Source of the DNA: Acidimicrobiia bacterium
GTDB lineage: Bacteria; Actinomycetota; Acidimicrobiia; IMCC26256; JADLDD01
Direction: 5' to 3'
Assembly (NCBI GenBank): GCA_020846855.1
Contig: JADLDD010000047.1
Span: 10,909-74,908 of the forward strand
Length of the DNA: 64,000 bases
In this document: piece after piece, positions 12,469 to 64,000 of the stretch
How positions within the stretch are numbered: the first letter of the stretch is position 1
Layout of the letters: every line of letters begins with the position of its first letter
Translations under genes and position numbers: made by a program
Notes under the pieces: generated by a model
The model's input: the letters and a program-made list of their open reading frames with translations, nothing else
Told to the model about the DNA's origin: nothing
Databases searched by the model: none

Positions 12469-12504
12469 ATCCGGAGTCTCGACGGCGCGCGGCCCGGGTT
12501 CTCC

Positions 12505-12840: not shown

Positions 12841-12922
12841 GACCCTCGTATCGGCATCCGAGCGGTTCGGTTGAGATCGAGGTTCCGTAGATGCTCGGAG
12901 ACGCGCGATCCCGGTCCCCGTT

Positions 12923-13198: not shown

Positions 13199-13395
13199 GA
13201 GGCTCGGCTCGATCGGTCTCGGAGGGCGCGCCGGATCTGCGTCGCCCTGGCGGCAGGGCCGATCGTTGACGTGACCGTCACCGGTAGCCGTCGATCCGGC
13301 GCCCCCGATACCGGAGCGGAGGTGACCCGCGGGTACGGCCGCCACCGGCGCGGAGCGCACGAGGTGCGACCGGCGGCGATCTCCCGGGTGTCCCG

Positions 13396-13401
13396 TACGA
13401 T
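13396..13401 (+). promoter_or_regulatory. -10 box TACGAT, 6 nt upstream of the mce ATG (leaderless-type)
   Basis: TACGAT-ggcggt-ATG(13408). No SD. Confidence 0.45.
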
Positions 13402-13407
13402 GGCGGT

Positions 13408-45431: not shown

Positions 45432-45454
45432 CGCCCGGGCGGGCGGTGCCTCGC

Positions 45455-46792
45455 TCAAGGGACCGTGGCCGCGGCGACCAGCGCCTCGGCGAGCCGATCG
45501 TCGTCGGACGGATCCACGGTGCGCAGGTCGCAGACGACCGATCCGCCGGCGGCGCGGGCCACGATGCGCCCCGCGCGCAGGGACGCGAGGGCGGCACCGG
45601 CCCGGGCGTCGCCGACCGGCAGCGCCACCGCGGCCGAGGGGATCGTCCGCCCGGGGAGGGAGCCGCCTCCTATCACGGCTTCCGTGTCGGCCACCTTGGC
45701 GCCCGGCACCCGGGCCGCCAGCGCCTCGGCGCGGGCCCGCAGATCGTCGAGCGGCGCGGTGGCCATCCGCCAGATCGGGAGCTCGGCGGCCCGACCGTCG
45801 AGGTAGGTGTTGGCGACGGCCTGGAGCGCGGCCAGGGAGAGCTTCCCCGGGCGCACGGCCCGGGCCAGCGGGTGCCGGGCCAGGCGCGCCACGACGTCGG
45901 TCCGTCCCACGATCACCCCGGCCTGGGGGCCACCGAGCAGCTTGTCGCCGGAGAACGTCACCAGCGTCGCCCCGGCATCGAGGCACTGGCGGACCCCCGG
46001 CTCGTCGCCCAGCCATCCCGGTCGGTGCCCGAGCCAGGGGGTGTCGGCGTCGAGGAGGCCCGACCCGGCGTCGACGACGAGCGGCGGGCCGAGCGTGGCC
46101 AGGTCGGGCAGCGACGCCGACTCCACGAACCCGACCATCCGGTAGTTCGACGGGTGCACCCGGAGCACGAGCGCCGTGGCCGCCGTCAGGGCGTGCTCGT
46201 AGTCGTACCGGCGGGTGCGGTTGGTGGTTCCGACCTCGACGAGGCGCGCCCCCGACTCCGCCATCACGTCGGGGATCCGGAAGCCGCCCCCGATCTCGAC
46301 CAGTTCGCCGCGCGACACCACGACCACGCGACCTCGCGCCAGCACCGAGAGCACCCGCAGCACCGCGGCCGCGTTGTGGTTGACGACGAGACCGGCCTCG
46401 GCGCCGCAGGCCCGGGCCAGCAACGCCCCGGCGTGGTCGTGGCGCGAACCACGGCGGCCCTCGTCGAGCCGGTACTCGAGGTTGGAGTAGCCCGAGGCCA
46501 CCTCGGCGGCGGCGGCCAGCGCGTCGCCGGGAAGCGGTGACCGCCCGAGGTTCGTGTGGACGATCACCCCGGTGGCGTTCACCACCCGGCCGAGGAGGGC
46601 GTGGCGGGCGGCGTCGACGCGCGCCCGGGCGGCGGCCACCACGGCGTCGGGGTCCACGGGCCGTCCGGCGGAGGCGTCGGCGCGGGCTTCGTCGACGGCG
46701 GCGCGTGCCGCGTCGGCGAGGAGCCGGTGCGGAAGGCCGTCGAGAGCGGCTACCACCCGGTCGACGGGAGGGACGGCACGGCGTGGATCCAC
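45455..46792 (-). CDS. selA: L-seryl-tRNA(Sec) selenium transferase
   Basis: Lower part of ORF 45455-47002. GTG 46792 lies 7 nt downstream of a TAGGCT box. PPVDRVV..., VNATGVIVHTNLGRS, NLEYRLDEGRRGSR, VNHNAAAV, FSGDKLLGGPQAG (PLP Lys). Confidence 0.88.
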   Translation of the reverse strand: MDPRRAVPPVDRVVAALDGLPHRLLADAARAAVDEARADASAGRPVDPDAVVAAARARVDAARHALLGRVVNATGVIVHTNLGRSPLPGDALAAAAEVASGYSNLEYRLDEGRRGSRHDHAGALLARACGAEAGLVVNHNAAAVLRVLSVLARGRVVVVSRGELVEIGGGFRIPDVMAESGARLVEVGTTNRTRRYDYEHALTAATALVLRVHPSNYRMVGFVESASLPDLATLGPPLVVDAGSGLLDADTPWLGHRPGWLGDEPGVRQCLDAGATLVTFSGDKLLGGPQAGVIVGRTDVVARLARHPLARAVRPGKLSLAALQAVANTYLDGRAAELPIWRMATAPLDDLRARAEALAARVPGAKVADTEAVIGGGSLPGRTIPSAAVALPVGDARAGAALASLRAGRIVARAAGGSVVCDLRTVDPSDDDRLAEALVAAATVP

Positions 46793-50226: not shown

Positions 50227-51969
50227 CTGACCCTGCGGTTCACCTGCAACGGCCGACCGGTCCGGGTCGAGCCGGCCCCGGGGTCGAGCCTCCTCGCGGT
50301 GCTGCGCGACGGGCTCGGCCTGGTCTCGCTCAAGGACGGCTGCGCGCCGCAGGGCCAGTGCGGCTGCTGCACGGTGCTGGTCGACGGCGTGGCGCGGGTG
50401 GCGTGCGTGACCCCCGCGGAGCGTGTGGCCGGCCGTGAGATCACGACCCTCGAGGGACTCGATCCGGCCGAGCGCGGCGGCTGGTCCGCCGCGTTCCTCG
50501 CCACCGGGGGTTCCCAGTGCGGGTTCTGCACGCCGGGGATCGTGATGAGGGGCGCCGCCCTGGCCCGCAAGGGGCCGTGGACCCCGACCGACGTGGACCG
50601 GGCCCTGGCCGCCCACCTGTGCCGCTGCACCGGCTGGCAGACGATCCACGAGGCCTTCGACCGGATGGGCGGCTCCCCGGGGTCCCGGGGCGACGACGAC
50701 GCCGGGTCGCCCGCGGGCGGGCGCGACCTCCGCGCCGCGGCCCGCCGGGCCGAGATGGAGGGCGGAGCACCTCAGGCGGTCGGCCCGGAGGTGCCTCTCG
50801 GCGAGGGCGGCTTCGCGGCCGACACCGCTCCCGACGGCGCTCTCGTGGCGGTACCGGCGCGCCCCGGGCCCGGTGCCGGCATCGTGGAGGCCGCCGGGTC
50901 GTGGTGGGCGGTCGGGGGATCGGTCGACGAGGCGCGCGCCGAGGCTCGGGCCGCCCCGGGCCGGCGCGGCACGGGTGGGCCGACGGCGCCGTTGCCGCTG
51001 CCGCAACGCCCGGCGGGGGGAGTCAGGCTGGCCACCACGTGGGTGGAACCGGCCTACCTCGAGACCGACGCGTCCTGGTGCCGGCCCGGGGGAGATCCCG
51101 CGTCGCCTCTCGCCAACGGCGGGGCCTTCGGCGCCAAGCAGGCGTCTCCCGCCCCGGCGGCGGCGAGGGAGCTCGCCGACCGCCTCGGTCGCCCGGTGCT
51201 GGCCCTCCTCTCGCGCGAGGACGTCGTGCGGATGGGTCCCAAGCGACCTCCCGTGTCGGCCGCGGCCCGGTTCGACGGGCACCGGCTGGGCATCGAGGGT
51301 TCGTGGATCGCGCCCGGTCCGCCGTGCCCGTTCCCCGGGTTCATCCCGCCGTACCGGATCGAGGTCGAGTCGTCGTGGACTCCGCGGGCCGTGCCGGGGC
51401 CGCCCGTGTCCACGTCGTTGCGGGCGGCGGGCACGGCCGAGCAGGCGGTGCTGATGGAGGGCGCGCTCGACGAGGCCGGGGCCGCACGTGCCGACCTCGT
51501 GTCGGAGGCCGCGGCCGACGTCCTGCTCGACACCTGCGTGCAGGTCGCCTCGGGGGCCCGGGCCGGCGCCCGCGTGGCGATCGACCCGCGCCGCGGCGCG
51601 GTCGGGTCCGTGGCGGTCAGGGTCGCGGCAGGCGACCCGCTGGACCACGTGGTCCTGCGCTCGTACGCGATCGGCGCGGTGCACATGGCCCTGGGATGGG
51701 TGTTCACCGAGGCCCTAACCGTCGACCCCGACGACGGCACGGTCCACGACCTGACGGTCCGGAGCCTCGGGGTGGTCCGGGCCCGGTCGATGCCGCCGGT
51801 CGAGGTGACGATCGTCGACGACCCCGGCCCGCCGCGGGCGTCCTCGTCGGACGCGGTGTTCGCGGCGGTGGCGGCGGCGGCCTGGAACGCCGTGGCCAGG
51901 GCGGAGGGTGCCCGGCCGGAGGTCTTCCCGGCCGTCGGCACCCGGGCGTCGCGGGCGCTCGGCCGTTGA
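50227..51969 (+). CDS. (2Fe-2S)-binding domain fused to a shortened xanthine-dehydrogenase/aldehyde-oxidase-family molybdopterin-subunit-like region; start codon unresolved
   Basis: ORF track starts at GTG 50299, but the homologous N-terminal strand (LTLRFTCNGRPVRVEPAPGSSLLAVLRDGLGL) is encoded from 50227 with only CTG codons available. CAPQGQCGCCTV and GSQCGFCTPG...HLCRCTGW are CoxS-type cluster motifs. Downstream, YLETDASW...GGAFGAK...GRPV...SREDV echoes Mo-subunit motifs in about 400 aa instead of about 750. Confidence 0.65.
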   Translation: MTLRFTCNGRPVRVEPAPGSSLLAVLRDGLGLVSLKDGCAPQGQCGCCTVLVDGVARVACVTPAERVAGREITTLEGLDPAERGGWSAAFLATGGSQCGFCTPGIVMRGAALARKGPWTPTDVDRALAAHLCRCTGWQTIHEAFDRMGGSPGSRGDDDAGSPAGGRDLRAAARRAEMEGGAPQAVGPEVPLGEGGFAADTAPDGALVAVPARPGPGAGIVEAAGSWWAVGGSVDEARAEARAAPGRRGTGGPTAPLPLPQRPAGGVRLATTWVEPAYLETDASWCRPGGDPASPLANGGAFGAKQASPAPAAARELADRLGRPVLALLSREDVVRMGPKRPPVSAAARFDGHRLGIEGSWIAPGPPCPFPGFIPPYRIEVESSWTPRAVPGPPVSTSLRAAGTAEQAVLMEGALDEAGAARADLVSEAAADVLLDTCVQVASGARAGARVAIDPRRGAVGSVAVRVAAGDPLDHVVLRSYAIGAVHMALGWVFTEALTVDPDDGTVHDLTVRSLGVVRARSMPPVEVTIVDDPGPPRASSSDAVFAAVAAAAWNAVARAEGARPEVFPAVGTRASRALGR

Positions 51970-52174: not shown

Positions 52175-53179
52175 GTGAGCATCAAGGTTGAGTACATCTG
52201 GATCGACGGCACGGAGCCCACGGCCCGCCTCCGGTCCAAGACCAAGGTCCTGCCGGCGGGTGGCGACGCCGAGCTCCCCATCTGGGGGTTCGACGGATCG
52301 AGCACCGGCCAGGCGCCGGGCCGGGCGTCCGACTGCGTGCTCCGGCCCGTCTTCACCGCGCCGGACCCCATCCGGGGCGGCCCGCACCTGCTCGCGCTGT
52401 GCGAGGTCCTCGACACCGACCTCACCCCGCACCGCACCAACACCCGGGCGGCGTGCCTGGAGGTCGCGGAGCGCTTCTCCGACCACGAGCCGCTCTTCGG
52501 CATCGAGCAGGAGTACACGTTCTTCAAGGACAGCCGCCCGCTCGGGTTCCCGGCCGGGGGCTTTCCGGCTCCCCAGGGCTTCTACTACTGCGGTGTGGGG
52601 GCCGACGAGGTGTTCGGGCGTGACGTGGTCGAGGCCCACCTCGACGCCTGCCTGACCGCCGGCCTGCAGATCTCGGGGATCAACGCCGAGGTCATGCCGG
52701 GGCAGTGGGAGTTCCAGGTCGGGCCGCTCGGGCCGATCGAGGTCTCCGACCAGCTCTGGCTGGCCCGGTGGCTCCTCTACCGCGTGGCCGAGGACTTCGG
52801 CATCTCCGCCACCCTGGCGCCCAAGCCGGTCAAGGGCGACTGGAACGGTGCCGGCGCGCACACCAACTTCTCGACCCGGCAGATGCGCTCCGACTACTCC
52901 GCCATCGTCGACGCCTGCGAGGCGCTGGGGGCGAAGGCCGCCGAGCACATCGCCCACTACGGCGCGGGGATCGAGGAGCGCCTCACCGGGTCGCACGAGA
53001 CGGCCGCGTTCACGACCTTCAGCTACGGGGTCTCCGACCGGGGCGCCTCGGTGCGTATCCCGTGGCAGGTCGAGGCGGCGAAGAAGGGCTACATCGAGGA
53101 CCGCCGGCCCAACGCCAACATGGACCCCTACCAGGTGACGCGCCTGGTCACCGACACCGTCTGCTCCGCTCTGGGCTGA
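52175..53179 (+). CDS. glnII: Glutamine synthetase type II (eukaryote-like GSII)
   Basis: Part of ORF 51908-53179. GTG 52175 is preceded by GGAGG. VEYIWIDG, PIWGFDGSSTGQA, FGIEQEYTFF, INAEVMPGQWEFQVGP, PKP..GDWNGAGAHTNFS, and SVRIP. Confidence 0.92.
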   Translation: MSIKVEYIWIDGTEPTARLRSKTKVLPAGGDAELPIWGFDGSSTGQAPGRASDCVLRPVFTAPDPIRGGPHLLALCEVLDTDLTPHRTNTRAACLEVAERFSDHEPLFGIEQEYTFFKDSRPLGFPAGGFPAPQGFYYCGVGADEVFGRDVVEAHLDACLTAGLQISGINAEVMPGQWEFQVGPLGPIEVSDQLWLARWLLYRVAEDFGISATLAPKPVKGDWNGAGAHTNFSTRQMRSDYSAIVDACEALGAKAAEHIAHYGAGIEERLTGSHETAAFTTFSYGVSDRGASVRIPWQVEAAKKGYIEDRRPNANMDPYQVTRLVTDTVCSALG

Positions 53180-53255: not shown

Positions 53256-55115
53256 TCAGCAGGTGAGGTCGGGAGGGCCCGTGAACACCGCGACCGGGAA
53301 CCCCAGGTCGGCGTCGGCCTTGAGGGTGAGGAACACCCGGGCCAGGAGGTCCGCCCGGTCGGGCGTCGCCAGCCGCGGATCCCTCATGACCGTCCGGGGC
53401 TTCACCCTGACCAGGGGGACGAGGTCGGTCAGGCCCGCGCCGGCCAGCTCGGCCTGCACCCTCCGGTAGAGGCGGTCGCTCTTCGCGCGCTGGGCCGGGG
53501 TCCGGGGGTCGTAGGCCGCGAGCTCGGTGGCCCCGGGGCAGCTCCTCCACCGCGACACGGCCGGGCCGACCGAGAGGTTGACGACCGCGGTGGCCTCCGC
53601 GCGCGACCGGGCCCAACGGTTCGAGAGGCTCAGCGCCCTGGGGGCCACGATGCCGACGTCGAGGCCCGAGCGCCGCATCTCGTTCATCAGCCCGATCCCC
53701 AGGTTGAACATCGTGACCGGGTCGTCCCAGTCGACGAGGTAGCGCCCGTCGCGACCCCGGCCGGCGGTGTCCGACCGCTTCAACGCGGCGATCGCGTCCG
53801 GTGCCACCCCGCCGAGCAGCCGGTTGGCCTGCTGGGCGCCGGGGTTCGCGTCCGCGGCCCGGATCGTGGCCGGAACGGTGAGCGCGACGACCGAGACCGC
53901 CGCCGCGATCGGCACGGCGCGGTTCAAGGCCCTTACCGGGCGTGCCGTCCCGCGCCCGGCGACCACGGCGCGGGCCGCGGCGACAGCCGTCCACCCGGTG
54001 GCGACGAGCACGAACGCGCCAAGGGCCCAGGCCCACAACATGAGGTAGTCCCAGAAGGGGCCGTGGATCGTCGAGGCCGAGACCAGCCCGAGGAGAAGGC
54101 TCGTGCCGATCACCGTGTGGAGGTGACGGAGGCGGCGGTCGGGGAGGCGCAGCGATACGGCGGCGGCGGCGGCCCAGGCGAGGACCGAGGCGATCCCGGT
54201 GGGGGCGCGGAGCCGGCCGAACGCCAGGGTGGTGTGCCCGGTCACCAGGCGGACGGGGTCGAGGTGGGCCGCCATCAGCTCCAGGCCCGTCCGGAGGCCG
54301 AGCGCGGGCTCGGTAGAGCGGCTGAACTCGTCGAAGAGGAGGGACAGGTTGGGGCGGGCGCCGAAGATCTGCTGGGCGACCGGTGGCAGCCACAGCACGC
54401 AGCCGAGCGCGACCGATCCGCCGGCCCACAGGGCGAGGCGGCGTAGCTCGTCGCGGTCGGAGCGCCGGCGTACGGCCCGCACGATCAGGACGGCGGCGGC
54501 GAGCAGGCCGAGACCACCCACGAGGCCCACGTACGAGATGTGGGTCTGGGCGCACAGGGACGCGGCGAAGACGGCGAGGGGCAGGACGACGAGGTCGTCC
54601 TCGAGGACCGACCACACCCCGAGAAGCACTACGGGCCACCAGAAGACGGGCTGGTACGGGTTCCACGGCGTCACCGGGATCACGGGGCCGTAGGCCACCA
54701 TGAGCGCGGCGAGGGCGGCCGCGACCCCGAGGACCAGCGCCGCCCCACCTCGCCTCGAGGCGATCCAGCACGTGCCGGCGACGGCCAGCGCGCTGAGGAA
54801 CCCGCCCGACAGGTGCAGCGCCCACGATCCGCCCCCGGCGAGGGTGTAGACGGGCCAGAGGGAGAAGAAGCCGAGCGGGCCCGGGTGATGACCGGGGTTC
54901 CCCGGGGTCCCGAACCGGCCCAGGAGCCCGACCAGGGGAGGCCGGGAGCCGGCGACGTCGTGGACGTTCATCTCGATCATCGCCATGTCGCCGTTCGGGA
55001 ACCAGCGCGGCTCGTGGACCGCGACCAGGGTGACGACGAGCGGGATCGCCAGGCCTGCCACCACGAGAGCCAGGACGGCGGGGTGGCACCGGGACCGCGG
55101 TGAGGTGGACGCCAT
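53256..55115 (-). CDS. Polytopic membrane protein, paralog 1 of 4 (about 12 TM helices plus a conserved C-terminal soluble domain; GT-C-like layout, family not recognised)
   Basis: ORF 53256-55115. Motifs shared with the other paralogs: RWFPNGDMAMIEMNVHDV, NPGHHPGPLGFFSLWP, WNPYQPVFWWP, CAQTHISYVGLVGG, WLPPVAQQ, and C-terminal NLSVGP...DPRTPAQRA...PVAVFTGPP. Starts 6 nt after the paralog 2 stop. Confidence 0.8.
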   Translation of the reverse strand: MASTSPRSRCHPAVLALVVAGLAIPLVVTLVAVHEPRWFPNGDMAMIEMNVHDVAGSRPPLVGLLGRFGTPGNPGHHPGPLGFFSLWPVYTLAGGGSWALHLSGGFLSALAVAGTCWIASRRGGAALVLGVAAALAALMVAYGPVIPVTPWNPYQPVFWWPVVLLGVWSVLEDDLVVLPLAVFAASLCAQTHISYVGLVGGLGLLAAAVLIVRAVRRRSDRDELRRLALWAGGSVALGCVLWLPPVAQQIFGARPNLSLLFDEFSRSTEPALGLRTGLELMAAHLDPVRLVTGHTTLAFGRLRAPTGIASVLAWAAAAAVSLRLPDRRLRHLHTVIGTSLLLGLVSASTIHGPFWDYLMLWAWALGAFVLVATGWTAVAAARAVVAGRGTARPVRALNRAVPIAAAVSVVALTVPATIRAADANPGAQQANRLLGGVAPDAIAALKRSDTAGRGRDGRYLVDWDDPVTMFNLGIGLMNEMRRSGLDVGIVAPRALSLSNRWARSRAEATAVVNLSVGPAVSRWRSCPGATELAAYDPRTPAQRAKSDRLYRRVQAELAGAGLTDLVPLVRVKPRTVMRDPRLATPDRADLLARVFLTLKADADLGFPVAVFTGPPDLTC

Positions 55116-55121: not shown

Positions 55122-57068
55122 TCAGCCCGCCGGATCGGGTGCCTCGAGGCAGCGCACCCCCGGTGGTGCGGTGAACACCGCCAGGGGCCAGCCGTGCTCC
55201 ATGATGCGGACGAGGTCGCGACGGACGTCGTCGGGGACCCGGGGGTCGAGACCCAGCTTGATGATCCGGGACTCGACGACGGGCGCGAGGTCGCCCTCCC
55301 CCACCTCGCGCAGGCGGGCCTGGGCCCGGGCGGTCAGCCGGCGGGCCTCAGCCCGCTCGGCTCGGGTGCGGGGGTCGTGGTGGGCGATCTCACGCGCTCC
55401 GGGGCATCGTCGCCACGTGTCGATGTCGGGACCGACCGAGAGGTGCACGACGGCCGTGGCCTCCGAGGGAGAGCGGGCGCGGTCCCCGGCGAGGCTCCGT
55501 GCGTAGATGGGCGGTAGGCCGACGTCGAGGCCCGCCCGCAGCATCTCGTTGGCGAGTCCCCATCCCTGCCCCTCGACCGACATCGGGTCCTTCCACGACA
55601 CCAGGTACCGGCCGCCGGGCCCCAGGCCCGGAACGTCGCTTCTCTCCAGGGCCGCGATCGCCGGAGAGGCGACACGGCCGAGCGCCCGCGACGACTCGAC
55701 CGCCACGGGGCTGATCCGGGCGGCCCGAACCGTGGCGACGCCGGAGAACACCACGGTGACCGCCACCCCGGCCGCGGCGGCCGAGCGCGTCGAGGCCCAT
55801 CCGGCCGCACGTTCGTGGCCGCCGGGTCGTGACCGTCGCCATCCGATCAGGGTCCACGCCGCGGCCAGGACCATCAGCGAGGTGAGCGCCCAGGCCCAGA
55901 GGAAGAGGTAGGGGTAGGGCATGCCGTGGACGCTGCCGGCCGACAGGAGGCCCAGCAGCAGCGCCGTGGCCAGGACGGCGTGGAGCCGGACGACCCGGCG
56001 GTCGGGCAGCCGGGTGGCGAGGACAGCGGTGGCGGCCCAGCCGGCCACGAGCAGCGCGCCCGGCAGCCACACACCGCCCACAACCTCGTAGGTGCGGCCG
56101 GTCAGGAGCTTCCACGGGTTCATGCGGGCGAACATGAGCTCGGCTCCGTGACGCAGCCCGGCGGCGGGGAGCGCCGGGTCGGTGAAGTCGTTGGCGATCT
56201 TGGAGAGGTTCGGGTCGGAGCCGAAGAGCTGCTGGGCGACGGGCGGGAACCACAGCAGGGCGGTGAGGGCGGCGGAGCCCCCCACCCAGGCCGCGACGCG
56301 CCGTCGTTCGGCCCGATCGTGTCGGCGCCGGAAGGCGCGGGCGGACAGCACCACCCCGACGAGCACGCCGAGACCACCGACCAGGCCCACGTAGGAGATG
56401 TGGGTCTGGGCGCAGAGGGAACCCGCGAAGACGGTGAGGGGCAGGACGGCGAGGTCGTCGTCGAGCGCCGACCACGCTCCGAGCACGACCACGGGCCACC
56501 AGAACACGGGCTGGAACGGGTTCCAGGGCTCCACCGGGACCGTCGCCGGATAGGCCGCGAGGAGGATGGCCGACACGGCCCCGACCCCGAACACCAGGTT
56601 GCGGCTCCCGCGGCGCGCCGCCATCCAGAGCGCCCCCCCGAGACCCGCGACGGTGAGGACCACCGACGAGAGCCGCAGCGCCCACGACGACGCCCCGGCG
56701 AGCGCGTAGGCCGGCCACAGGCTGTAGAAGCCGAGCGGGCCCGGGTGGTGTCCGGGGTTGGCGAACGTCCCCAGCCGCCCCACCAGGCCCACGAGGGGCG
56801 GGCGCGAACCGCCGACGTCGCGGACGTTGGCCTCGATCATGGCCAGGTCGAAGATCGGGTACCAGCGCGGGTTCCGCAGGACCACGAGCGAGACGAGGGG
56901 TGCCACCGCCAGGACGGCGAGGACCGCGCCCACCGCCACGGTCGACCGGCCCCCGGGGGGTCGCCGGGCCGGACGGGCGCCGCCCTCCTCGGCCGGTTCG
57001 GGGTCGGGCCCGGTGGAGACGCCGCCCGAGGCCTCCGACGTGACGGCGTTGGTGCGTCCACCAGGCAA
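55122..57068 (-). CDS. Polytopic membrane protein, paralog 2 of 4
   Basis: Lower part of ORF 55122-57260. Start probably TTG 57068 (7 nt after a TATACT box); the only other in-frame candidate is GTG 56939, which would remove the basic ARPARRPPGGRS segment that aligns with paralog 3. RWYPIFDLAMIEANVRDV, NPGHHPGPLGFYSLWP, GQGWGLANEMLRAG, HLSVGP. Confidence 0.75.
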   Translation of the reverse strand: MPGGRTNAVTSEASGGVSTGPDPEPAEEGGARPARRPPGGRSTVAVGAVLAVLAVAPLVSLVVLRNPRWYPIFDLAMIEANVRDVGGSRPPLVGLVGRLGTFANPGHHPGPLGFYSLWPAYALAGASSWALRLSSVVLTVAGLGGALWMAARRGSRNLVFGVGAVSAILLAAYPATVPVEPWNPFQPVFWWPVVVLGAWSALDDDLAVLPLTVFAGSLCAQTHISYVGLVGGLGVLVGVVLSARAFRRRHDRAERRRVAAWVGGSAALTALLWFPPVAQQLFGSDPNLSKIANDFTDPALPAAGLRHGAELMFARMNPWKLLTGRTYEVVGGVWLPGALLVAGWAATAVLATRLPDRRVVRLHAVLATALLLGLLSAGSVHGMPYPYLFLWAWALTSLMVLAAAWTLIGWRRSRPGGHERAAGWASTRSAAAAGVAVTVVFSGVATVRAARISPVAVESSRALGRVASPAIAALERSDVPGLGPGGRYLVSWKDPMSVEGQGWGLANEMLRAGLDVGLPPIYARSLAGDRARSPSEATAVVHLSVGPDIDTWRRCPGAREIAHHDPRTRAERAEARRLTARAQARLREVGEGDLAPVVESRIIKLGLDPRVPDDVRRDLVRIMEHGWPLAVFTAPPGVRCLEAPDPAG

Positions 57069-57075
57069 GAGCGCA

Positions 57076-57081
57076 AGTATA
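57076..57081 (-). promoter_or_regulatory. -10 box TATACT upstream of paralog 2
   Basis: Minus strand: gggccgccgacgggcgtccaTATACT-tgcgctc-TTG(57068). Confidence 0.4.
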
Positions 57082-57165
57082 TGGACGCCCGTCGGCGGCC
57101 CGGCGGGCGCGGAGCCGGCGCCCGCGGGGCTCGGCGACCGGCCGGTCGGGAGCGAGGGAGCGAGC

Positions 57166-57564
57166 GTGGCTGAAGCAGCGGTGGAGCAGATCTCCGACGC
57201 CGGGGTTCCGGTGGCAGGCCCGTACTCGCCGGTCGTGAGGGCCGGCGACTGGCTGGTCACGGCCGGTCAGGTCGGCATCGATCCCGACACGCTCCAGCTC
57301 GCCGCGGGAGGCGCCGGCCCGGAGGCGCACCAGGCGCTCGCGAACATCCGCACCGTCCTGGCCGCCGCGGGCGCCGGTCTCGGCGACGTGGCCAAGACCA
57401 CCGTCTTCGTGGCCGACCTCGCCGACTTCGGGGCGATCAACGACGCGTACTCGCACGCGTTCGGCGACCACCGGCCGGCCCGCACCACGGTCGAGGTCGC
57501 CGCGCTGCCCCTCGGGGCCGCCGTCGAGATCGAGGCCTGGGCCTATCGCCCCGGGCGCGCCTGA
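57166..57564 (+). CDS. ridA: RidA/YjgF/L-PSP family reactive-intermediate deaminase
   Basis: Part of ORF 56758-57564. GTG 57166 is preceded by [27 protein letters not shown]...ANIRTVLAAAGAGLGDVAKTTVFV.D...F...N..Y...F....PARTTVEVAALPLGAAVEIEA. Confidence 0.88.
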   Translation: MAEAAVEQISDAGVPVAGPYSPVVRAGDWLVTAGQVGIDPDTLQLAAGGAGPEAHQALANIRTVLAAAGAGLGDVAKTTVFVADLADFGAINDAYSHAFGDHRPARTTVEVAALPLGAAVEIEAWAYRPGRA

Positions 57565-57609: not shown

Positions 57610-59439
57610 TCAAGGGGTGGCCAGGTCCGGCGGTCCCACGAACACCGCCAGGGGCAGGCCGAGCTCGAGCATCCGGTTCACCACCGGTCCGACGTCGGGT
57701 GGCACCCGGGGGTCGACGCCCACCGAGAAGAGGAGCGAGTCGACCTTCGGCACCAGGTCGTCGAGGCCCAGCGAGCGCAGGCGACGTATCAGTCCGCGGC
57801 GCAGCCGGGCGTACTCCGCCCGCTCGGCGGCCGACCGGGGCTCGTGGTAGGCGATGCGCCGCGCGCCCGGCCGGCGGTCCCACCGGGCGATGTCGGGACC
57901 CACGGAGAGGTGCACGACCGCGTCGGCGCGCGCCGGCGTGGTGACCCGGTGGCCGCCACCCGCGCCCGGTCCGAGGGCGTCCGAGACCCGGGCGTCGAAC
58001 CCGGCCCGAACGAGCTCGTTCAGCAACCCCCACCCCTGACCACCCAGTCCCAGGTGGTCGGTGAAGGTCACGAGCAGCCGCGGGTCGCCTCTCTCCCCGC
58101 CCCACCGGCGGTCGAGCTGGCGGACCGTGGCCGGGACCACCCCGCCGAGCGCGTCGGACTCCGAGCCCGAGCGGGTCCGGAAGTCGGTGGCGCGGGTCGT
58201 CGCGACCCCGGTGAAGGCGACCAGGACGGCCATGCTCACCGCGGCCGGCGCGTAGGCGGCCCGGCCGGGTGGCGTGCCGTCGAGGCGGTGGCCCCACCAC
58301 CCCCAGGCCGTCCACGCGATCGCCAGCAGCATCAGCGCGGCGAGCGACCAGCACCACAGGAGCAGGTAGTACCAGACGTGCCCGTGGATGCTGGCCGCGG
58401 AGACGGCGGCCAGCGCCAGCGTGAGCCCGAGCACGCCGTGCAGCCGCGTGATCCGCCGGTCGGGCAGGATCCGCCACGCGACGAGGGCCGCGACACCCCA
58501 GGCGACGATCAGCAGGACGCCCGGGAGCAGCGGGCCGTGCGGATCCTCGGTGAGCCCTGACACGAGCCGGAGCGGGCTCAGGTTCGCGAGCACCGCCTCG
58601 AGGCCGCGCCGGGCGCCGATGGGCGCCTCGACCGGGTGGGCGAAGTCGCCCCAGATGATCGACATGTTGGGGTTGTCGCCGCCGATCTGCTGGGCCACCG
58701 GAGGTATCCAGAGGACCGCCCCGAGCGCGGCCGATGCCGCGGACCAGGACACGATGCGGCGGAGCTCGGGCCGGTCGGCGCGGTGGCGGCGGACGAGCAC
58801 GGCGACCGCGGCGACGACCACGAGGGCCATCCCGCCGACGAGGCCGAGGTACGACACGTGGGTCTGCGCGCACATCGAGGCGGCGAAGACGGTGAGGGGC
58901 AGGGCGACCACGTCGCCTTCGAGCACCGACCAGACCCCGAACACGACCGCCACCCACCAGAACGCCGGGAGGTAGGGGTTCCACGCCTCGACCGGGATCT
59001 CCGGTCCGTAGGCGGCGAGGACCACGGCGAGCACGGCGCCGGCGGCGAGGACCAGGCGGACGCCGCCGCGGCGGGCGGCGAGCCAGACCGTGCCCGCCAT
59101 GGCGACGACGCTCAGGGCCGACGACGAGAGCCGCAGGGCCCAGGACGTCCGGCCGGCGAGCGCGTAGAGCGGCCAGAGGGAGAAGAAGCTGAGCGGTCCG
59201 GGATGGCTCCCGGGACGGGACTGGTCGCCGAGCCTTCCCACGAGCCCCAGCAGCGGCGGGTACGCGCTGGCGACGTCGCGCACGCGCAGTTCGGTCTGGG
59301 CCAGGTCGAGGACGGGGTACCAGCGGTGGGATCGGAGCCCGACGAGGGCGACGACCAACGGCACCGCGAGGACCACCACGACCGCGATCCCGGTGACCCC
59401 GGCGGCTCTCCGGGCTGCATCGGGGGTTGGTCGGGCCAC
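57610..59439 (-). CDS. Polytopic membrane protein, paralog 3 of 4
   Basis: Lower part of ORF 57610-60453. GTG 59439 lies 8 nt after a TATACT box. RWYPVLDLAQTELRVRDV, RPGSHPGPLSFFSLWP, CAQTHVSYLGLVGG, WIPPVAQQ, GQGWGLLNELVRAG, HLSVGPDI, PLAVFVGPP. Confidence 0.8.
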   Translation of the reverse strand: MARPTPDAARRAAGVTGIAVVVVLAVPLVVALVGLRSHRWYPVLDLAQTELRVRDVASAYPPLLGLVGRLGDQSRPGSHPGPLSFFSLWPLYALAGRTSWALRLSSSALSVVAMAGTVWLAARRGGVRLVLAAGAVLAVVLAAYGPEIPVEAWNPYLPAFWWVAVVFGVWSVLEGDVVALPLTVFAASMCAQTHVSYLGLVGGMALVVVAAVAVLVRRHRADRPELRRIVSWSAASAALGAVLWIPPVAQQIGGDNPNMSIIWGDFAHPVEAPIGARRGLEAVLANLSPLRLVSGLTEDPHGPLLPGVLLIVAWGVAALVAWRILPDRRITRLHGVLGLTLALAAVSAASIHGHVWYYLLLWCWSLAALMLLAIAWTAWGWWGHRLDGTPPGRAAYAPAAVSMAVLVAFTGVATTRATDFRTRSGSESDALGGVVPATVRQLDRRWGGERGDPRLLVTFTDHLGLGGQGWGLLNELVRAGFDARVSDALGPGAGGGHRVTTPARADAVVHLSVGPDIARWDRRPGARRIAYHEPRSAAERAEYARLRRGLIRRLRSLGLDDLVPKVDSLLFSVGVDPRVPPDVGPVVNRMLELGLPLAVFVGPPDLATP

Positions 59440-59550: not shown

Positions 59551-60594
59551 ATGACCGACCCATCCCCCGGGGCCGCCGGCGGCCCCGCGATCGTCACCGG
59601 CGCCGCCGGATGGCTGGGCCAGAACCTGGTGAGGGAGCTCGGCCCGCGCCGGGACCGCGTCCGGTGCCTCGTGCGCGACGAGGGGGAGCGTCCCCTCGTG
59701 GAGGTGATCGCCCCGTCGGTCGAGGTCGTCGTCGGCGACGTACGCGATCCGGCGGCGCTCGACCGCCTCTTCGACGGCGCGGCGTCGGCGACCGTGTTCC
59801 ACGCGCTGGGCGTCGTGCACGCCGCCGGGCGCACCCGCGAGTTCTTCGACACCAACGTCGGCGGCACCGACCTCGTCCTCGACCGGGCCCGGCGGACGCG
59901 GGCCCGCCGGGTGGTCCACGTGTCGTCGAACTCCCCGTTCGGCGCCAACCCCTCGCGGGACCACCGGTTCACCGAGGACTCGCCGTACAACCCGTACCTG
60001 GCGTACGGGGAGTCGAAGCGCCAGGCCGAGGAGCTGGTGCTCCGGGCCGCCGAGCACGGCGACGTCGAGGCGGTGGTCCTGCGGGCCCCGTGGTTCTACG
60101 GCCCGAACCAGCCCCCGCGCCAGAGCCGGTTCTTCTCCGCCATCCGCCGCGGCCGGTTCCCGATCGTCGGCGACGGCACCCAGCGGAGGTCGATGGTCTA
60201 CACCGGCCACCTCGTGCAGGGGATGCTGCTCGCGGAGGGGGTGCCCGAGGCCGCGGGGCGGGCCTACTGGATAGCCGACGCCGAACCCTACGAGCTGCGC
60301 GACGTGATCGCGACGGTCCGCGCCGCCCTGGAGGCCGAGGGGCTCGAGGTGTCGCCACGCCGGCCCCGGCGCCTTCCCCTTCCCGCGGCGGTGCTCGCGG
60401 CCCGGGCCGACGCCTTCCTCCAGGCCCGGGGGCGCTACCTCCAGGCGGTCCACGTCCTCGGCGAGCTCAAGGACACGATCGCGTGCGACGTGAGCCGCGC
60501 CCGCGAGGAGCTGGGCTTCGATCCGTCGACGAGCCTGCTCGACGGGATGCGGGCGAGCATCCGGTCCTGCCTCGACCGGGGTGAGCAGCTGTGA
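59551..60594 (+). CDS. NAD-dependent epimerase/dehydratase (extended SDR, 3-beta-HSD-like)
   Basis: Part of ORF 58636-60594. ATG 59551 is preceded by GAGGAGG. VTGAAGWLG Rossmann motif, SSNSPFG, YGESK (YxxxK). Confidence 0.85.
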   Translation: MTDPSPGAAGGPAIVTGAAGWLGQNLVRELGPRRDRVRCLVRDEGERPLVEVIAPSVEVVVGDVRDPAALDRLFDGAASATVFHALGVVHAAGRTREFFDTNVGGTDLVLDRARRTRARRVVHVSSNSPFGANPSRDHRFTEDSPYNPYLAYGESKRQAEELVLRAAEHGDVEAVVLRAPWFYGPNQPPRQSRFFSAIRRGRFPIVGDGTQRRSMVYTGHLVQGMLLAEGVPEAAGRAYWIADAEPYELRDVIATVRAALEAEGLEVSPRRPRRLPLPAAVLAARADAFLQARGRYLQAVHVLGELKDTIACDVSRAREELGFDPSTSLLDGMRASIRSCLDRGEQL

Positions 60595-61631
60595 CCCGAT
60601 CCGGAACGATGCTCGTGACCGGCGGTAGCGGCTACTTCGGGAGCGTGCTCGTCGACGCCGCGCTCACGCAGGGTTGGAAGGTCCGCGTCTTCGACCTGAA
60701 CCCCCCCGACCCGCGCCCCGACGGCGCCGTCGAGTACGTGGCCGGCGACATCGTCGACCGAGAGGCGATCCGTGAGGCCTGCCGCGGCGTCGACGTCGTC
60801 ATGCACAACGTCGCCCAGGTGCCGCTGGCACGCGATCGCGAGCTGTTCTGGTCCGTCAACGTCGTCGGCACCGGCAACCTCCTGGTCGCGGCCCGCGACG
60901 CCGGCGTCGCGAAGGTGGTGAACACGTCGTCGAGCGCGGTGTTCGGCATCCCGGAGTCGAACCCGGTCACCGAGGAGACCCCGGTCCGGCCCTTGGAGGC
61001 CTACGGCCGGGCCAAGGTCCACGCCGAGATGCTCTGCCACGACGCCGTCGCCGCCGGCCTCGACGTCACCATCGTGCGGCCCCGGACCATCCTCGGGCAC
61101 GGGCGCCTCGGGATCATGGGCGCGCTCTTCGACCTCGTCGCCGACGGGGCGCCGGTCTTCGTGCTGGGCGACGGGTCCAACCGCTACCAGTTCGTCCACG
61201 CCTCGGACCTCGCTTCCGCCTGCCTCCTGGCCGCCGCCCGGCCGGGTCCGGCCGTCTACAACGTCGGCGCGGCCGAGATGGGCACGATGCGCGAGACGCT
61301 CCAGGCCCTCGTCGACCACGCCGGCACGGGATCGCGGGTGCGTTCGCTGCCCAAGGGGCCGGCCCGGATCGCCATGCGAGCTCTCGGGGCTCCCGGCCTG
61401 GCGCCGTTCGCCCCCTACCACTGGCTCCTCTACGGCGAGTCGCTCTGGTTCGACATCAGCCGGGCCCGCGGTGAGCTCGGGTGGGAGCCGCGGCACTCGA
61501 ACGCGTCGATGGTCGTCGAGTCCTACGAGTGGTTCCTCGCCCACCGCGCCGACCTCGACGGCGGGAACCGCTCGACCCACCAGTCGCCGGCCCGCCTCGG
61601 CGTCCTCGCCGTCCTGAAGCACCTCCCCTGA
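60591..61631 (+). CDS. NAD-dependent epimerase/dehydratase (extended SDR), second copy
   Basis: ORF 60591-61631. The GTG overlaps the upstream stop (GTGA). VTGGSGYFG, TSSSAVFG, YGRAK (YxxxK). Confidence 0.85.
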   Translation: MTRSGTMLVTGGSGYFGSVLVDAALTQGWKVRVFDLNPPDPRPDGAVEYVAGDIVDREAIREACRGVDVVMHNVAQVPLARDRELFWSVNVVGTGNLLVAARDAGVAKVVNTSSSAVFGIPESNPVTEETPVRPLEAYGRAKVHAEMLCHDAVAAGLDVTIVRPRTILGHGRLGIMGALFDLVADGAPVFVLGDGSNRYQFVHASDLASACLLAAARPGPAVYNVGAAEMGTMRETLQALVDHAGTGSRVRSLPKGPARIAMRALGAPGLAPFAPYHWLLYGESLWFDISRARGELGWEPRHSNASMVVESYEWFLAHRADLDGGNRSTHQSPARLGVLAVLKHLP

Positions 61632-61659
61632 CGCGGGGCGGCCGGGCCGGCGCGGTCGG

Positions 61660-61665
61660 TAGTCT
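61660..61665 (+). promoter_or_regulatory. -10 box TAGTCT, 8 nt upstream of the ATG at 61674
   Basis: TAGTCT-gtcgccgc-ATG. Confidence 0.3.
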
Positions 61666-61673
61666 GTCGCCGC

Positions 61674-62018
61674 ATGAGGCGCATCGAACGACGGGTCGTC
61701 GCGCTCCTGGCGCGGGGTGAGCCCGACGCCGCGCGGCTGGAGGCGATCCAGGCCTACGTCGGCGAGACGCTCCGCCTCATGCCGGATCACCTCCGGTTGG
61801 GCGTGGCGCTGGAGTCGGCCGCGATCGGTACGGCCGACGCCGCGGCGCGCGCGGTGGGCCTCCTCGACGACGACCGTCTCCGGCTGATCCTGGAGCGGTG
61901 GGAGGCGAGCTCGGTCACGCCGCTGCGCCAGTACGTCCGCCTGCTGCGGTCCCTGACCCTCTACGCGGGCGAGGAGCTCGACCACGCGGTTCCGGCGCCC
62001 CCGGGAGCGGTCGCGTGA
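61674..62018 (+). CDS. Hypothetical 114-aa protein, translationally coupled to the GMC oxidoreductase (possible accessory subunit)
   Basis: ORF 61674-62018. Its stop overlaps the GMC GTG (GTGA). Helical, with no signal peptide or family recognised. Confidence 0.5.
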   Translation: MRRIERRVVALLARGEPDAARLEAIQAYVGETLRLMPDHLRLGVALESAAIGTADAAARAVGLLDDDRLRLILERWEASSVTPLRQYVRLLRSLTLYAGEELDHAVPAPPGAVA

Positions 62019-63439
62019 CCGACCTCCGCGCCGACGTGGTGGTGGTGGGGTCCGGCGCCGGGGGTGCGGTGACGGCCGCCACCCTCGCCGAGGGGGGCCG
62101 CGACGTGTGCGTGGTCGAGGAGGGCCCCTGGATCGCTCCCGACGAGCTGGAGCCGTTCTCCTTCGAGGAGATGAGGGCCAGGTACCGCCACCGGGGGCTG
62201 ACGGCCGCGCTGGGTCGCCCGGGCATCGCCTACGCGGAAGGGCGCTGCGTCGGCGGCAGCACCGAGATCAACAGCGGGCTCTACCGGCGCCTGCCCGAGG
62301 AGCTCGCGGCCCGGTGGCAGGAGCGGGGCCGGATCCTGGAGTTCACACCCGACATCCTCGACCACTACGCCTCGACGATCGAGGAGGAGATCGAGATCTC
62401 CACCGTGCCCGGCGCACCGCCGTTGTCGTCGGCGCTCATCGAACGGGGGGCGACCAAGCTGGGGTGGCGTTCCACCGAGTTCGCCCGTCTCTTCAGCTAC
62501 TCCCCCGACGGGCGGGGCACCAAGCAGACCATGGCCCGCACCTTCGTGCCGCGGGCGGTGGCGGCCGGGGCCCGGATCGTTCCCGACACCGAGGCCGTGC
62601 GGGTGCTCGTCGACGGGGGCCGCGCGACCGGCGTCGCGTGCCGGAGGCGCCGTCCCGACGGCGCTTGGGAGCGATTCGAGGTGCGCGCGCCCCAGGTGTT
62701 CGTCTGCGGAGGCGCGATCCAGAGCCCGGCGCTCCTGCAGCGGTCCGGGATCCGGGGCCTGGTCGGTTCGGGACTCGAGTTCCACCCGACGATCAAGGTC
62801 GCGGCCCGCTTCCCCCACCCGATCGACCACGACGACGTTCCCATGCACCGGGTGACCGAGTTCCCGTCCAACCTCACGATCGGCGGGTCCGCCAGCACCC
62901 GGGGCCACGTGGCCCTGGCCATCGCCGACGCCGCCCCCGGCGACGACGAAGCTCTCGACGCCTGGGAGTCGACGGCCGTCTACTACACGGCCATCAAGAG
63001 CGAGGGCCACGGGCGCGTGTGGACGCTCCCGGGCCTCCACGCCCCCGTCGTGGCCTACAGCCTCACCGAGGCCGACCTGAGCCTCCTGGCCCGCGGACTG
63101 GTCCATCTCGGTGAGCTGCTCTTCGCGGCGGGAGCCACCGCGCTGTACCCGTCCATCGCCGGGGGACCGGTCCTCCGCCGGCGCGGGGACCTCGTGTCGT
63201 GGTGGGACGCCGTCGACCGGAACCGCGTCAACCTCATGACCGTCCACCTGGCGTCGACGATCCGCATGGGCGAGGACCAGGCGCTGGCCGCCGCCGACAG
63301 CTTCGGGCGGATCCGGGGCGTCGCCAACCTCTGGGTCAACGACGCCTCCCTCCTGCCCACGGCGCCGGGTGTAAACCCGCAGGCCGCGATCATGGCCATC
63401 GCGCGCCGCAACGCCGACCACTTCCTCGCGAACACCTGA
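62015..63439 (+). CDS. GMC-family FAD-dependent oxidoreductase
   Basis: Part of ORF 61898-63439, from GTG 62015. VVVGSGAGGAVTAATLAEGGRDVCVVEEG (FAD fold), CVGGSTEINSG, and the C-terminal active-site region MTVHLASTIRMG...NLWVNDASLLPTAPGVNPQAAIMAIA. Confidence 0.85.
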   Translation: MTDLRADVVVVGSGAGGAVTAATLAEGGRDVCVVEEGPWIAPDELEPFSFEEMRARYRHRGLTAALGRPGIAYAEGRCVGGSTEINSGLYRRLPEELAARWQERGRILEFTPDILDHYASTIEEEIEISTVPGAPPLSSALIERGATKLGWRSTEFARLFSYSPDGRGTKQTMARTFVPRAVAAGARIVPDTEAVRVLVDGGRATGVACRRRRPDGAWERFEVRAPQVFVCGGAIQSPALLQRSGIRGLVGSGLEFHPTIKVAARFPHPIDHDDVPMHRVTEFPSNLTIGGSASTRGHVALAIADAAPGDDEALDAWESTAVYYTAIKSEGHGRVWTLPGLHAPVVAYSLTEADLSLLARGLVHLGELLFAAGATALYPSIAGGPVLRRRGDLVSWWDAVDRNRVNLMTVHLASTIRMGEDQALAAADSFGRIRGVANLWVNDASLLPTAPGVNPQAAIMAIARRNADHFLANT

Positions 63440-63447: not shown

Positions 63448-64000
63448 TCAGGCGGTGGTGCCCGGCGGGGCGACGAACACCGCCACGGGTTCTCCGAGCT
63501 CGAGCATCCGCCGGGTGTCGCGCTCGACCTCGGGCGGCAGGTCGGGAGCCAGGGCGAGGAGGAAGAGCTGGGAGTCGAGCAGGGGGAGCAGGTCGTCGCG
63601 CCCGCCGCTCCGGAGCCGGCGATCGACGCGGGCGTGCAGCCGCCGGAACTCCGCCCGCTCGGCGCGGCTGCGCGGATCGCCGTAGGCGATCTCGGTGGCG
63701 TCCGGGACGGCGCGCCACACGTCGATGGCGGTACCGACCGCCAGGTGGACGGTGGCGCGCGCATCTCGGTCCGCGACGACTCGGTGGCCGCGGGCCCCGC
63801 CCCGGTAGAGCGGGACGTCGGCCACCCCGACCGGGATGCCGACCCGCTCGAGCTCGTTGATCAGTCCCCAGCCCTGCCCGCCCAGGCTGACGGTGTCGGT
63901 CCAGGTGACGACGAACCGCTCGCCCCTCAGGGGTTCCTCGGCCATGCGGGCGCGCAGCGCCGTGGCGGTCGGGGCCACCACCTCCCCCAGCGCCGCGCCC
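63448..64000 (-). CDS. Polytopic membrane protein, paralog 4 of 4 (only the C-terminal domain is in the window; gene continues past the right edge)
   Basis: ORF 63448-63981 and beyond. GQGWGLINELERVG, HLAVGT, DPRSRAERAEF, PVAVFVAPP align with the C-terminal domains of paralogs 1-3. Confidence 0.75.
   Translation of the reverse strand, partial: GAALGEVVAPTATALRARMAEEPLRGERFVVTWTDTVSLGGQGWGLINELERVGIPVGVADVPLYRGGARGHRVVADRDARATVHLAVGTAIDVWRAVPDATEIAYGDPRSRAERAEFRRLHARVDRRLRSGGRDDLLPLLDSQLFLLALAPDLPPEVERDTRRMLELGEPVAVFVAPPGTTA

Follow-up and report, generated by a model that had tools for sequence, protein, structure and literature searches.

In Corynebacteriales, decaprenyl-phospho-arabinose is made by an oxidation carried out by DprE1, a flavoenzyme of the vanillyl-alcohol oxidase (VAO) fold, and then a reduction carried out by DprE2, a short-chain dehydrogenase/reductase (SDR); the genes for both adjoin aftA-embCAB. 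This epimerisation of a lipid-linked sugar is a validated tuberculosis drug target. Glycosyltransferases of the GT-C fold, including ArnT, AftA, AftB, Emb, and STT3, take polyprenyl-phosphate-sugar donors. To our knowledge, only two enzyme solutions for the epimerisation of lipid-linked sugars have been found so far: DprE1/DprE2 and a single GalE-like SDR. We analysed a 64,000-nt stretch of DNA from an Acidimicrobiia bacterium (hereafter the window; assembly GCA_020846855.1, contig JADLDD010000047.1, positions 10,909 to 74,908), in which two extended SDRs, a small helical protein, and a flavin adenine dinucleotide (FAD) oxidoreductase of the glucose-methanol-choline (GMC) family are encoded side by side (the core), between membrane proteins of predicted GT-C fold. 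We tentatively read the core, with somewhat less than an even chance of being right, as the redox part of an envelope-glycan locus conserved across Acidimicrobiia, which would oxidise and then reduce a polyprenyl-phosphate-linked sugar for the GT-Cs.

The core resembles DprE1/DprE2 in that a flavoprotein oxidase and NAD(P)H-dependent SDRs are genetically linked to several GT-Cs; in some of the related loci described below, the likeness extends to the wider set that includes Rv3806c and AftA/AftB/AftD/Emb, since these loci contain a decaprenyl-phosphate phosphoribosyltransferase (DPPR synthase) equivalog and AftD- or AftB_C-type proteins. It differs in that the oxidase has the GMC fold (PF00732/PF05199) rather than the VAO fold, with no FAD_binding_4 match listed; in that there are two extended SDRs of ~346 aa instead of one classical SDR of ~250 aa (adh_short); in its obligatory small helical partner; and in its host. 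In Pfam, neither SDR matches adh_short; at 346-347 aa, the two proteins belong to the extended type. Because the folds that define DprE1 and DprE2 were looked for and not found, the module is a member of neither family and is, by its gene content, a putative analogue of the pair.

A second system worth comparing is that of Citrobacter youngae O2, where ORF13 is required for the side-chain switch from ribofuranose (Ribf) to xylofuranose (Xylf), and where the authors infer that ORF13 acts on undecaprenyl-phosphate-ribofuranose (PMC11127046); glycans containing arabinofuranose (Araf) are accompanied by DprE1/E2 homologues (PMC11127046). Compared by description, ORF13 is like the SDRs of the core, being a GalE-like extended SDR with TGxxGxxG and YxxxK motifs that is implicated in epimerising a polyprenyl-phosphate-pentofuranose upstream of a GT-C, in three-component glycosylation, but the C. 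youngae system has a single SDR and no flavoprotein. Our literature search (GMC with DprE1/DprE2, GMC with polyprenyl or GT-C, and DPPR synthase with Acidimicrobiia) returned no prior description of such a module, and no curated family in Pfam or NCBIfam covers the GMC clade, the small protein, or the membrane-protein family.

The four-gene core

Open reading frame (ORF) listing and codon-position GC analysis (the GC content of the window is ~74%) place the four core genes on the plus strand, in the order SDR1, SDR2, small, GMC:

59551-60594, plus strand: SDR1, extended SDR (PF01370) of 347 aa; ATG start with GAGGAGG upstream
60591-61631, plus strand: SDR2, extended SDR (PF01370) of 346 aa; GTG start overlapping the SDR1 stop as GTGA
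61660-61665, plus strand: -10-like hexamer TAGTCT, 8 nt before the ATG of the small gene; no Shine-Dalgarno sequence
61674-62018, plus strand: gene for the small five-helix protein of 114 aa, translationally coupled to the GMC gene
62015-63439, plus strand: GMC-family FAD oxidoreductase (PF00732 and PF05199) of 474 aa; GTG start overlapping the small-gene stop as GTGA

An alternative start of SDR2, at 60609, is used in database gene calls. Proteins identical to those of the window are on record in two metagenome-assembled genomes (MAGs) of Acidimicrobiia, GCA_048500395.1 and GCA_023382415.1.

Both SDRs match PF01370 in a Pfam search (E = 2.5e-36 for SDR1 and 3.3e-44 for SDR2), and both also match PF16363 and PF01073 (3Beta_HSD); they share only 30% identity with each other. 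SDR1 contains TGAAGWLG (the TGxxGxxG motif), SSNS (with the catalytic Ser), and YGESK (YxxxK), and the corresponding motifs of SDR2 are TGGSGYFG, TSSSA, and YGRAK; the glycine motif, the Ser, and YxxxK of both proteins are kept in 58-59 orthologues. These motifs, together with a length of ~340 aa that includes a C-terminal substrate domain, identify both proteins as extended SDRs of the PF01370 type.

The GMC protein matches PF00732 (E = 1.4e-29; 103.9 bits, cutoff 23) and PF05199 (E = 5.4e-19; 69.6 bits, cutoff 24.6) and has the FAD-binding GxGxxG motif as GSGAGG at residues 12-17, also conserved among its orthologues, and so belongs to the GMC superfamily. Its catalytic pair, His411 (in MTVH) and Asn454 (in GVNPQ), is at least 95% conserved in 79 orthologues and aligns with the catalytic part of 8qve, a pyranose oxidase. 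At E<=1e-20 there are more than 4,370 homologues, and the best 120 listed are ~474 aa long and at least 64% identical. The PDB sequences nearest to the family by profile are bacterial pyranose oxidases, at 65-67 bits only, followed by choline and cholesterol oxidases. The bacterial pyranose oxidases and glycoside 3-oxidases (8qve, 9fl2; ~495-539 aa) are comparably compact, have the same His/Asn pair, and oxidise sugars at secondary hydroxyls, but the profile similarity is patchy, and those enzymes are standalone and act on free sugars or glycosides, with neither a small partner nor a GT-C context. None of the NCBIfam models reached its cutoff with the GMC protein; the best sub-threshold matches are MftG (mycofactocin dehydrogenase, TIGR03970; 81.9 bits, cutoff 387), choline dehydrogenase, and cholesterol oxidase. 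The sequences of the GMC and small proteins contain no signal peptide or transmembrane segment, which fits action at the cytoplasmic face.

The small protein is predicted to form five helices (AlphaFold2 model, pLDDT 82) and has no Pfam, PDB-sequence, or PDB-fold match (best Foldseek E = 3.5). An exhaustive profile search of 1.84 billion representatives gave 213 clusters at 50% identity, nearly all of them standalone proteins of ~100-130 aa with the motifs MPDHLRLGVAxES and RQYVRLLRSL; since the members are near-exclusively standalone, the small protein represents a dedicated small family of its own. The few long hits carry neither a GMC nor any other Pfam domain, and are probably mis-called ORFs. 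Two candidate identities were rejected. The first is the gamma ("hitch-hiker") subunit of FAD-glucose, fructose, and gluconate dehydrogenases, which is likewise encoded immediately upstream of a GMC catalytic gene; but no match to PF13618 was found in 11 members at E<=10, a PDB profile search was empty, no fold match was found in the PDB, the protein has no twin-arginine signal motif, and there is no cytochrome c subunit. The second, suggested by a motif of fatty-alcohol oxidases (FAO), is a split-off N-terminal domain of GMC proteins of the FAO type, of which there are no fusions among the 213 clusters. A GMC protein extended at its N-terminus, 8s2y, is mentioned in a publication about plant AA3 enzymes.

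We compared the core across species by scanning one genome per GTDB species: 199 genomes encode a GMC relative, and the loci were analysed in the best 80 of them, which are nearly all Acidimicrobiia MAGs and whose GMC proteins are 61-67% identical. SDR1 and SDR2 share 60-68% and 66-77% identity, respectively, across the 80 species (tblastn). This recurrence in 80 species genomes means that the arrangement of the core is not due to chance. For the 43 loci that have 6 kb or more of flanking sequence on each side, tblastn, gene calling, and clustering show the small gene immediately upstream of the GMC gene in 93% and both SDRs in 88%. In 64 of 76 loci, the small and GMC genes are separated by a gap of -4 or -1 nt; for SDR1 and SDR2, the gap is -1 or -4 nt in 38 of 59. 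There are at least six arrangements of the core: the SDR pair may lie upstream, lie downstream, or be inverted, and GT-C genes may separate the core genes or adjoin them.

A box of the form TANNNT, in most cases TAGGCT (also TATGCT and TAGTCT), precedes the start of the small gene by 5-9 nt (usually 8) in 57 of 73 loci within the series L003-L085, as compared to 97 of 877 control genes (11%), and several of the loci seemingly without the box look like mis-called start codons. A simple two-hexamer sigma-70 scan found no promoter match at the start of the small gene. The conserved -10-like box, together with the lack of a Shine-Dalgarno sequence, supports a putative dedicated promoter, leaderless or near-leaderless, for the small and GMC genes, which appears to be kept irrespective of the gene upstream.

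The two SDRs, the 114-aa helical protein, the 474-aa GMC protein, the GTGA couplings, and the intact motifs are therefore, by ORFs, Pfam, and motif conservation, exactly as described in the sequence-only reading, an earlier annotation made from the letters of the window; the TAGTCT-N8-ATG that it had pointed out as a possible internal leaderless promoter is one instance of the conserved box, whereas the match to a gamma subunit for which it had proposed a test was not found (no PF13618 or fold match).

Two further observations concern the related loci (numbered L001 onwards). In five of them (L004:8432-9620, L071, L075, L079, and L082), the genes directly upstream of small and GMC encode a membrane protein resembling cytochrome b561 (PF01292) and a protein of ~160 aa; these two proteins could be the electron acceptor for the GMC flavoprotein. 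The contigs of L006, L055, L059, and L072 were deposited as MAGs of Bifidobacterium breve, Bifidobacteriaceae, Burkholderiales, and so on, and the protein cluster behind L004 and L005 (P0103) is named Thermoanaerobacterales by NCBI; the odd labels on module contigs probably reflect mis-binning or mislabelling.

GT-C-fold paralogues and glycan genes around the core

Three full and one partial membrane paralogues flank the core, all on the minus strand:

53256-55115, minus strand: memC, GT-C-fold paralogue of 619 aa, 46% identical to memA in the alignment
55122-57260, minus strand: memB, GT-C-fold paralogue, 49% identical to memA; 712 aa as the longest ORF, 605 aa if it starts at 56939
57610-59439, minus strand: memA, GT-C-fold paralogue of 589-609 aa, divergent from SDR1; fold from an AlphaFold2 model and Foldseek
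63448-64000, minus strand: C-terminal part of a fourth GT-C-fold paralogue, with a C-terminal domain like that of memA; it runs off the window and is 620-659 aa on the parent contig

The start of memB is uncertain (database calls give 605 or 648 aa, and the gene caller used here gave 605 aa). The fourth paralogue is complete in L001, at 11434-13413, and is 46% identical to memA (tblastn). None of the four has a match in Pfam or NCBIfam, and their homologues are annotated as hypothetical.

The AlphaFold2 model of memA (pLDDT 92, pTM 0.92) matches GT-C structures in the PDB at a Foldseek probability of 1.00, including ArnT, AftA, STT3, AglB, ALG12, AftB, and EmbA/B/C (and AftD at 0.90), with E-values from 7.5e-7 to about 1e-2. 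The best match is ArnT (E = 7.5e-7; TM-scores 0.48/0.53), with which memA has in common a multi-pass domain at the N-terminus, a soluble domain at the C-terminus, and acidic residues conserved in the first loop: directly after the first transmembrane segment, D45 and E50 are the same in all of 30 sequences, and R54 and D55 in at least 90%. With no detectable sequence homology to the GT-C families of Pfam, the paralogues form a separate, unnamed family, and comparison with the co-located PMT_2 family by hhalign (probability 1.3%) likewise detected no homology; their membership among the GT-Cs follows from the predicted fold and the conserved acidic loop. The earlier description of these proteins as GT-C-like is thus borne out by the memA model.

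Linkage to the core is frequent: within 10 kb, a novel GT-C paralogue is found in 79% of the 43 loci and a GT-C of any kind in 88%. GT-C-type proteins are by far the commonest immediate neighbours of the core (in 40, 26, and 21 loci), the novel GT-Cs adjoin it in five arrangements, and, of the 29 pairs in which SDR2 and the following GT-C gene run in the same direction, 13 overlap by 4 nt. The co-conservation of the core and the membrane paralogues, which the sequence-only reading had made a point of its test, thus holds for most of the well-flanked loci, but not throughout, since one sub-lineage has no GT-C within 10 kb and the paralogues also occur away from the core.

Other glycan genes recur beside the core. 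Glycosyltransferases of family 2 (GT2) and AftD-type GT-Cs are each found in 53% of the 43 loci; the AftD-type GT-C (PF11847, E = 3e-108) carries a carbohydrate-binding module. The GT2 protein (246 aa) has as its four best NCBIfam matches AglJ, a Dol-P-hexose transferase, PpgS, and ArnC, all of them sub-threshold and all polyprenyl- or dolichyl-phosphate sugar synthases, and in L033, L043, and L088 the genes for GT2, SDR1, and SDR2 are co-directional. In four loci (L047, L069, L076, and L080), a DPPR synthase (cluster c37) is encoded directly upstream of the core on the same strand, and the co-directional order is DPPR synthase, small, GMC, SDR1, SDR2, GT-C, GT-C. This protein (302 aa, UbiA family, PF01040 E = 5.7e-25, at least 5 transmembrane segments) scores 337.6 bits against the equivalog model NF008978 (cutoff 207), and is accordingly assigned as a DPPR synthase. 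Other recurrent neighbours are PMT_2 GT-Cs, GT4 proteins, Acyl_transf_3 proteins, methyltransferases, and an uncharacterised protein, u538.

The last of these, a 538-aa protein (L022:1448-3064 and 31 other loci), combines at least ~7 transmembrane segments with a soluble domain at the C-terminus, and its usual partner is a GT2; with an hhalign probability of 26% to the novel GT-C family, a weak similarity centred on the HPGPLSF/LYGPGSLW motif, it may be another GT-C family. L088, a locus anchored on a GT-C paralogue, encodes a 562-aa protein with an AftB_C domain (PF26371; 13191-14879), and further contains both SDRs, one of the novel GT-Cs, several GT-Cs of the PMT_2 type, and Acyl_transf_3/SGNH proteins. 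A PRK07208-type flavoprotein of the amine-oxidase fold recurs in the glycan loci (L037:19091-20569, L008, L012, L019, L030, L038, L058, L069, L080, L086, and L088); at 735 bits, it is above the cutoff (389) of NF005548, a model that carries no name other than "hypothetical protein".

Proposed lipid-linked sugar remodelling and its rivals

Our best reading is that the core oxidises and then reduces a polyprenyl-phospho-sugar, which would be a DprE1/DprE2-like function. A polyprenyl-phosphate-linked sugar would be supplied at the cytoplasmic face by the linked GT2-type synthase, or by DPPR synthase in at least one lineage. The GMC flavoprotein, with its co-translated five-helix partner, would oxidise one hydroxyl of the sugar to a ketone, and the two extended SDRs would act on the keto intermediate at one carbon or at two, either reducing it with NAD(P)H or re-epimerising it, to give an epimeric lipid-linked sugar. 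This donor would then be flipped across the membrane, where the adjacent novel GT-Cs (and AftD-, AftB-, and PMT_2-type enzymes where present) would build an extracytoplasmic glycan.

Several lines of evidence support this reading. The catalytic residues of both enzyme classes are intact and under strong constraint; the adjacency to GT-Cs is kept through at least five rearrangements and is accompanied by the 4-nt overlaps of SDR2 with GT-C genes; and the predicted fold of memA matches GT-Cs that use polyprenyl-phosphate-sugar donors. In addition, the GT2 neighbour resembles polyprenyl-phosphate-sugar synthases and DPPR synthase adjoins the core in some loci; the nearest solved relatives of the GMC protein, the pyranose oxidases, oxidise secondary sugar hydroxyls; and ORF13 is an earlier example of an extended SDR that is implicated in a pathway of lipid-linked pentoses. 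The sequence-only reading had proposed a DprE1/DprE2-like epimerisation built from non-orthologous parts; the context it relied on holds up (GT-C fold and linkage) and is joined by the DPPR synthase, GT2, and AftD-type proteins of related loci, whereas the comparison with Corynebacteriales cannot be taken literally for an Acidimicrobiia host, and the chemistry stays conditional.

Other observations weigh against it. In about eight loci of one sub-lineage, with the order PlsC-small-GMC-SDR1-SDR2-GltB, no GT-C lies closer than 10 kb, and in three loci the small and GMC genes lack SDRs in their vicinity. The GT-C paralogues are also found without the core when long contigs are anchored on them: among the loci reached in this way, one has the layout of the window, one has GT2-SDR1-SDR2-GT-C with no GMC gene within 10 kb, one has glycan genes and no core, and one has a solitary paralogue. 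The adjacency of DPPR synthase is a single evolutionary event, confined to one sub-lineage whose members are 75-80% identical. No 5'-phosphatase or flippase was identified in the loci, and a search of the whole window for GT2, AftD-type, PMT_2, u538, GT4, methyltransferase, Acyl_transf_3, and UbiA-type genes found none. An epimerisation at one carbon needs only one reductase, which leaves the second SDR unaccounted for, and the best PDB match of SDR2 is a sterol enzyme, human NSDHL (E = 8e-26), with a GDP-sugar 4-epimerase about equally close. The whole-cell sugars of one cultured member of the Iamiaceae, a strain that is not a confirmed carrier of the module, are rhamnose, ribose, mannose, and galactose, with arabinose not reported (PMC12263773). 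Finally, all of the chemistry is what we infer from gene content and context, namely the substrate, the order of the reactions, the carbon attacked, and the product.

A more specific and doubtful version is that Acidimicrobiia make a lipid-linked pentofuranose, or another epimeric donor, by a non-orthologous replacement of DprE1/DprE2 (the GMC protein, the five-helix subunit, and two extended SDRs), which would feed the unrecognised GT-C family and AftD-/AftB-like enzymes to build an arabinan-like envelope polymer outside Corynebacteriales. If the module does epimerise a lipid-linked sugar, it would be a third enzyme solution to this chemistry, with a GMC protein, a new small subunit, and two extended SDRs, and would show repeated evolution of the reaction. 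Such a result would also assign a role to the GMC clade, which is large, strongly conserved, and currently unannotated, define a new GT-C family, and provide a way into the envelope glycans of Acidimicrobiia, which are abundant but poorly cultured in soil, water, and sludge; the enzymes of the module could serve in glycoengineering of rare lipid-linked sugars.

We ranked four rival explanations by likelihood: nucleotide-sugar chemistry, an unrelated soluble pathway in inherited synteny, tailoring of the carrier lipid, and sterol- or terpenoid-type chemistry. In the first, which we regard as unlikely, the SDRs act on a nucleotide sugar (as 4-epimerase, 4,6-dehydratase, or 4-reductase), the GT2 loads the unusual nucleoside-diphosphate sugar onto polyprenyl phosphate, and the GMC and small proteins carry out a separate step, e.g., oxidation of the finished glycan or glycolipid. 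The Arn pathway likewise has an SDR step on a nucleotide sugar upstream of a GT-C. The PF01370 and PF16363 matches, the PDB relatives of the SDRs (MoeE5 and RmlB, the nearest to SDR1, as well as GalE and the GDP-sugar 4-epimerase), and the co-directional GT2-SDR1-SDR2 order in three loci are all consistent with this explanation, but neither SDR reached the cutoff of any NCBIfam model, and the scores of the two SDRs against the nucleotide-sugar equivalogs are far too low (GalE 52 and 86 bits, cutoff 262; RmlB 72 and 69 bits, cutoff 365; RmlD 44 and 42 bits, cutoff 224). The best sub-threshold matches, ahead of these three, are instead the lipid enzymes OleD, HpnA, and SdmB. Nor does this explanation account for the near-invariant linkage of the GMC and small genes to the SDR pair, and no nucleotidyltransferase is conserved in the loci.

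An improbable second explanation is that the core is an independent, housekeeping-like soluble pathway (e.g., of sugar or polyol oxidation), and that its nearness to the GT-Cs is inherited synteny without functional coupling. The core is indeed much better conserved than the GT-Cs (61-77% versus 26-47% identity), and the occurrences of core and paralogues apart from each other noted above point the same way. Against this, the adjacency survives inversions and reshuffling in at least five arrangements, with frequent 4-nt overlaps between SDR2 and GT-C genes, and the core has no conserved companion among transporters, kinases, or catabolic regulators.

Comparably improbable is a role in tailoring the carrier lipid, in which the GMC protein would oxidise free polyprenol to polyprenal, one SDR would reduce the alpha-isoprene double bond, and the other the aldehyde, giving a dolichol-like carrier for the GT-C pathways, by analogy with the eukaryotic DHRSX/SRD5A3 route. 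One oxidase and two reductases match the three steps, some GMC enzymes oxidise long-chain primary alcohols, the lipid-acting enzymes among the best NCBIfam matches of the SDRs fit, and the linkage to polyprenyl-phosphate-dependent enzymes is explained equally well. However, the loci share no conserved polyprenol kinase or phosphatase, the absence of fusions from the 213 clusters speaks against the small protein being an N-terminal domain of FAO-type GMCs, and the nearest solved GMC proteins are, though weakly, pyranose oxidases and not alcohol oxidases.

The least probable rival, in which a terpenoid, hopanoid, or other lipid would be oxidised and reduced at a 3-hydroxyl, as by cholesterol oxidase and 3-beta-hydroxysteroid dehydrogenase (the alternative offered in the sequence-only reading), can draw on the PF01073 matches of both SDRs, on NSDHL as the best PDB match of SDR2, and on the cholesterol oxidases among the GMC matches in the PDB, but the scores fall far short of the equivalog cutoffs (cholesterol oxidase NF058674 40 bits, cutoff 850; HpnA 75-122 bits, cutoff 368; SdmB 84-100 bits, cutoff 600), and the 82 neighbourhoods, dominated by glycosyltransferases, contain no squalene, hopene, or terpene cyclase and no steroid-catabolic gene. 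More generally, the clustering that the earlier annotation had named as telling against its proposal, with characterised sterol or alcohol oxidases and nucleotide-sugar epimerases, is not seen: the NCBIfam matches are far below their cutoffs, and the PDB relatives are distant and mixed.

Other features of the window and related loci

The remainder of the 64-kb window consists of ordinary metabolism genes. A RidA/YjgF-family gene (PF01042 in database calls; 57181-57564, plus strand) lies between two of the GT-C paralogues on the opposite strand, and is also found in a close relative, L089. Glutamine-synthetase-like genes flank the GT-C/core locus on both sides, one at 52175-53179 of the window (plus strand; short, 334 aa) and the other at 14293-15678 of L001. 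In a 556-aa ORF at 50299-51969 (plus strand), a [2Fe-2S] Fer2_2 domain is accompanied by no more than part of a molybdopterin-binding domain (weak match to PF02738); the ORF may be a fusion of an unusual kind, or a gene of the xanthine-dehydrogenase family that was mis-called or is degraded. Adjacent genes for SelB, the selenocysteine-specific elongation factor, and SelA, selenocysteine synthase, at 43653-46756 (minus strand) indicate that the organism uses selenoproteins.

In one sub-lineage, a further operon lies just upstream of the core (L004:781-7004 and ~15 other loci), in the order TetR (reverse), EpiHAD, ADH, LarA, PlsC (all forward). Its products are a thioester-reductase/HAD-IB fusion of 815 aa, a Zn-dependent alcohol dehydrogenase, a hydroxyacid isomerase of the LarAH14/15/16 family, dependent on the nickel-pincer nucleotide (NPN), and a PlsC-type acyltransferase; the isomerase scores 917 bits against its family model (cutoff 740).

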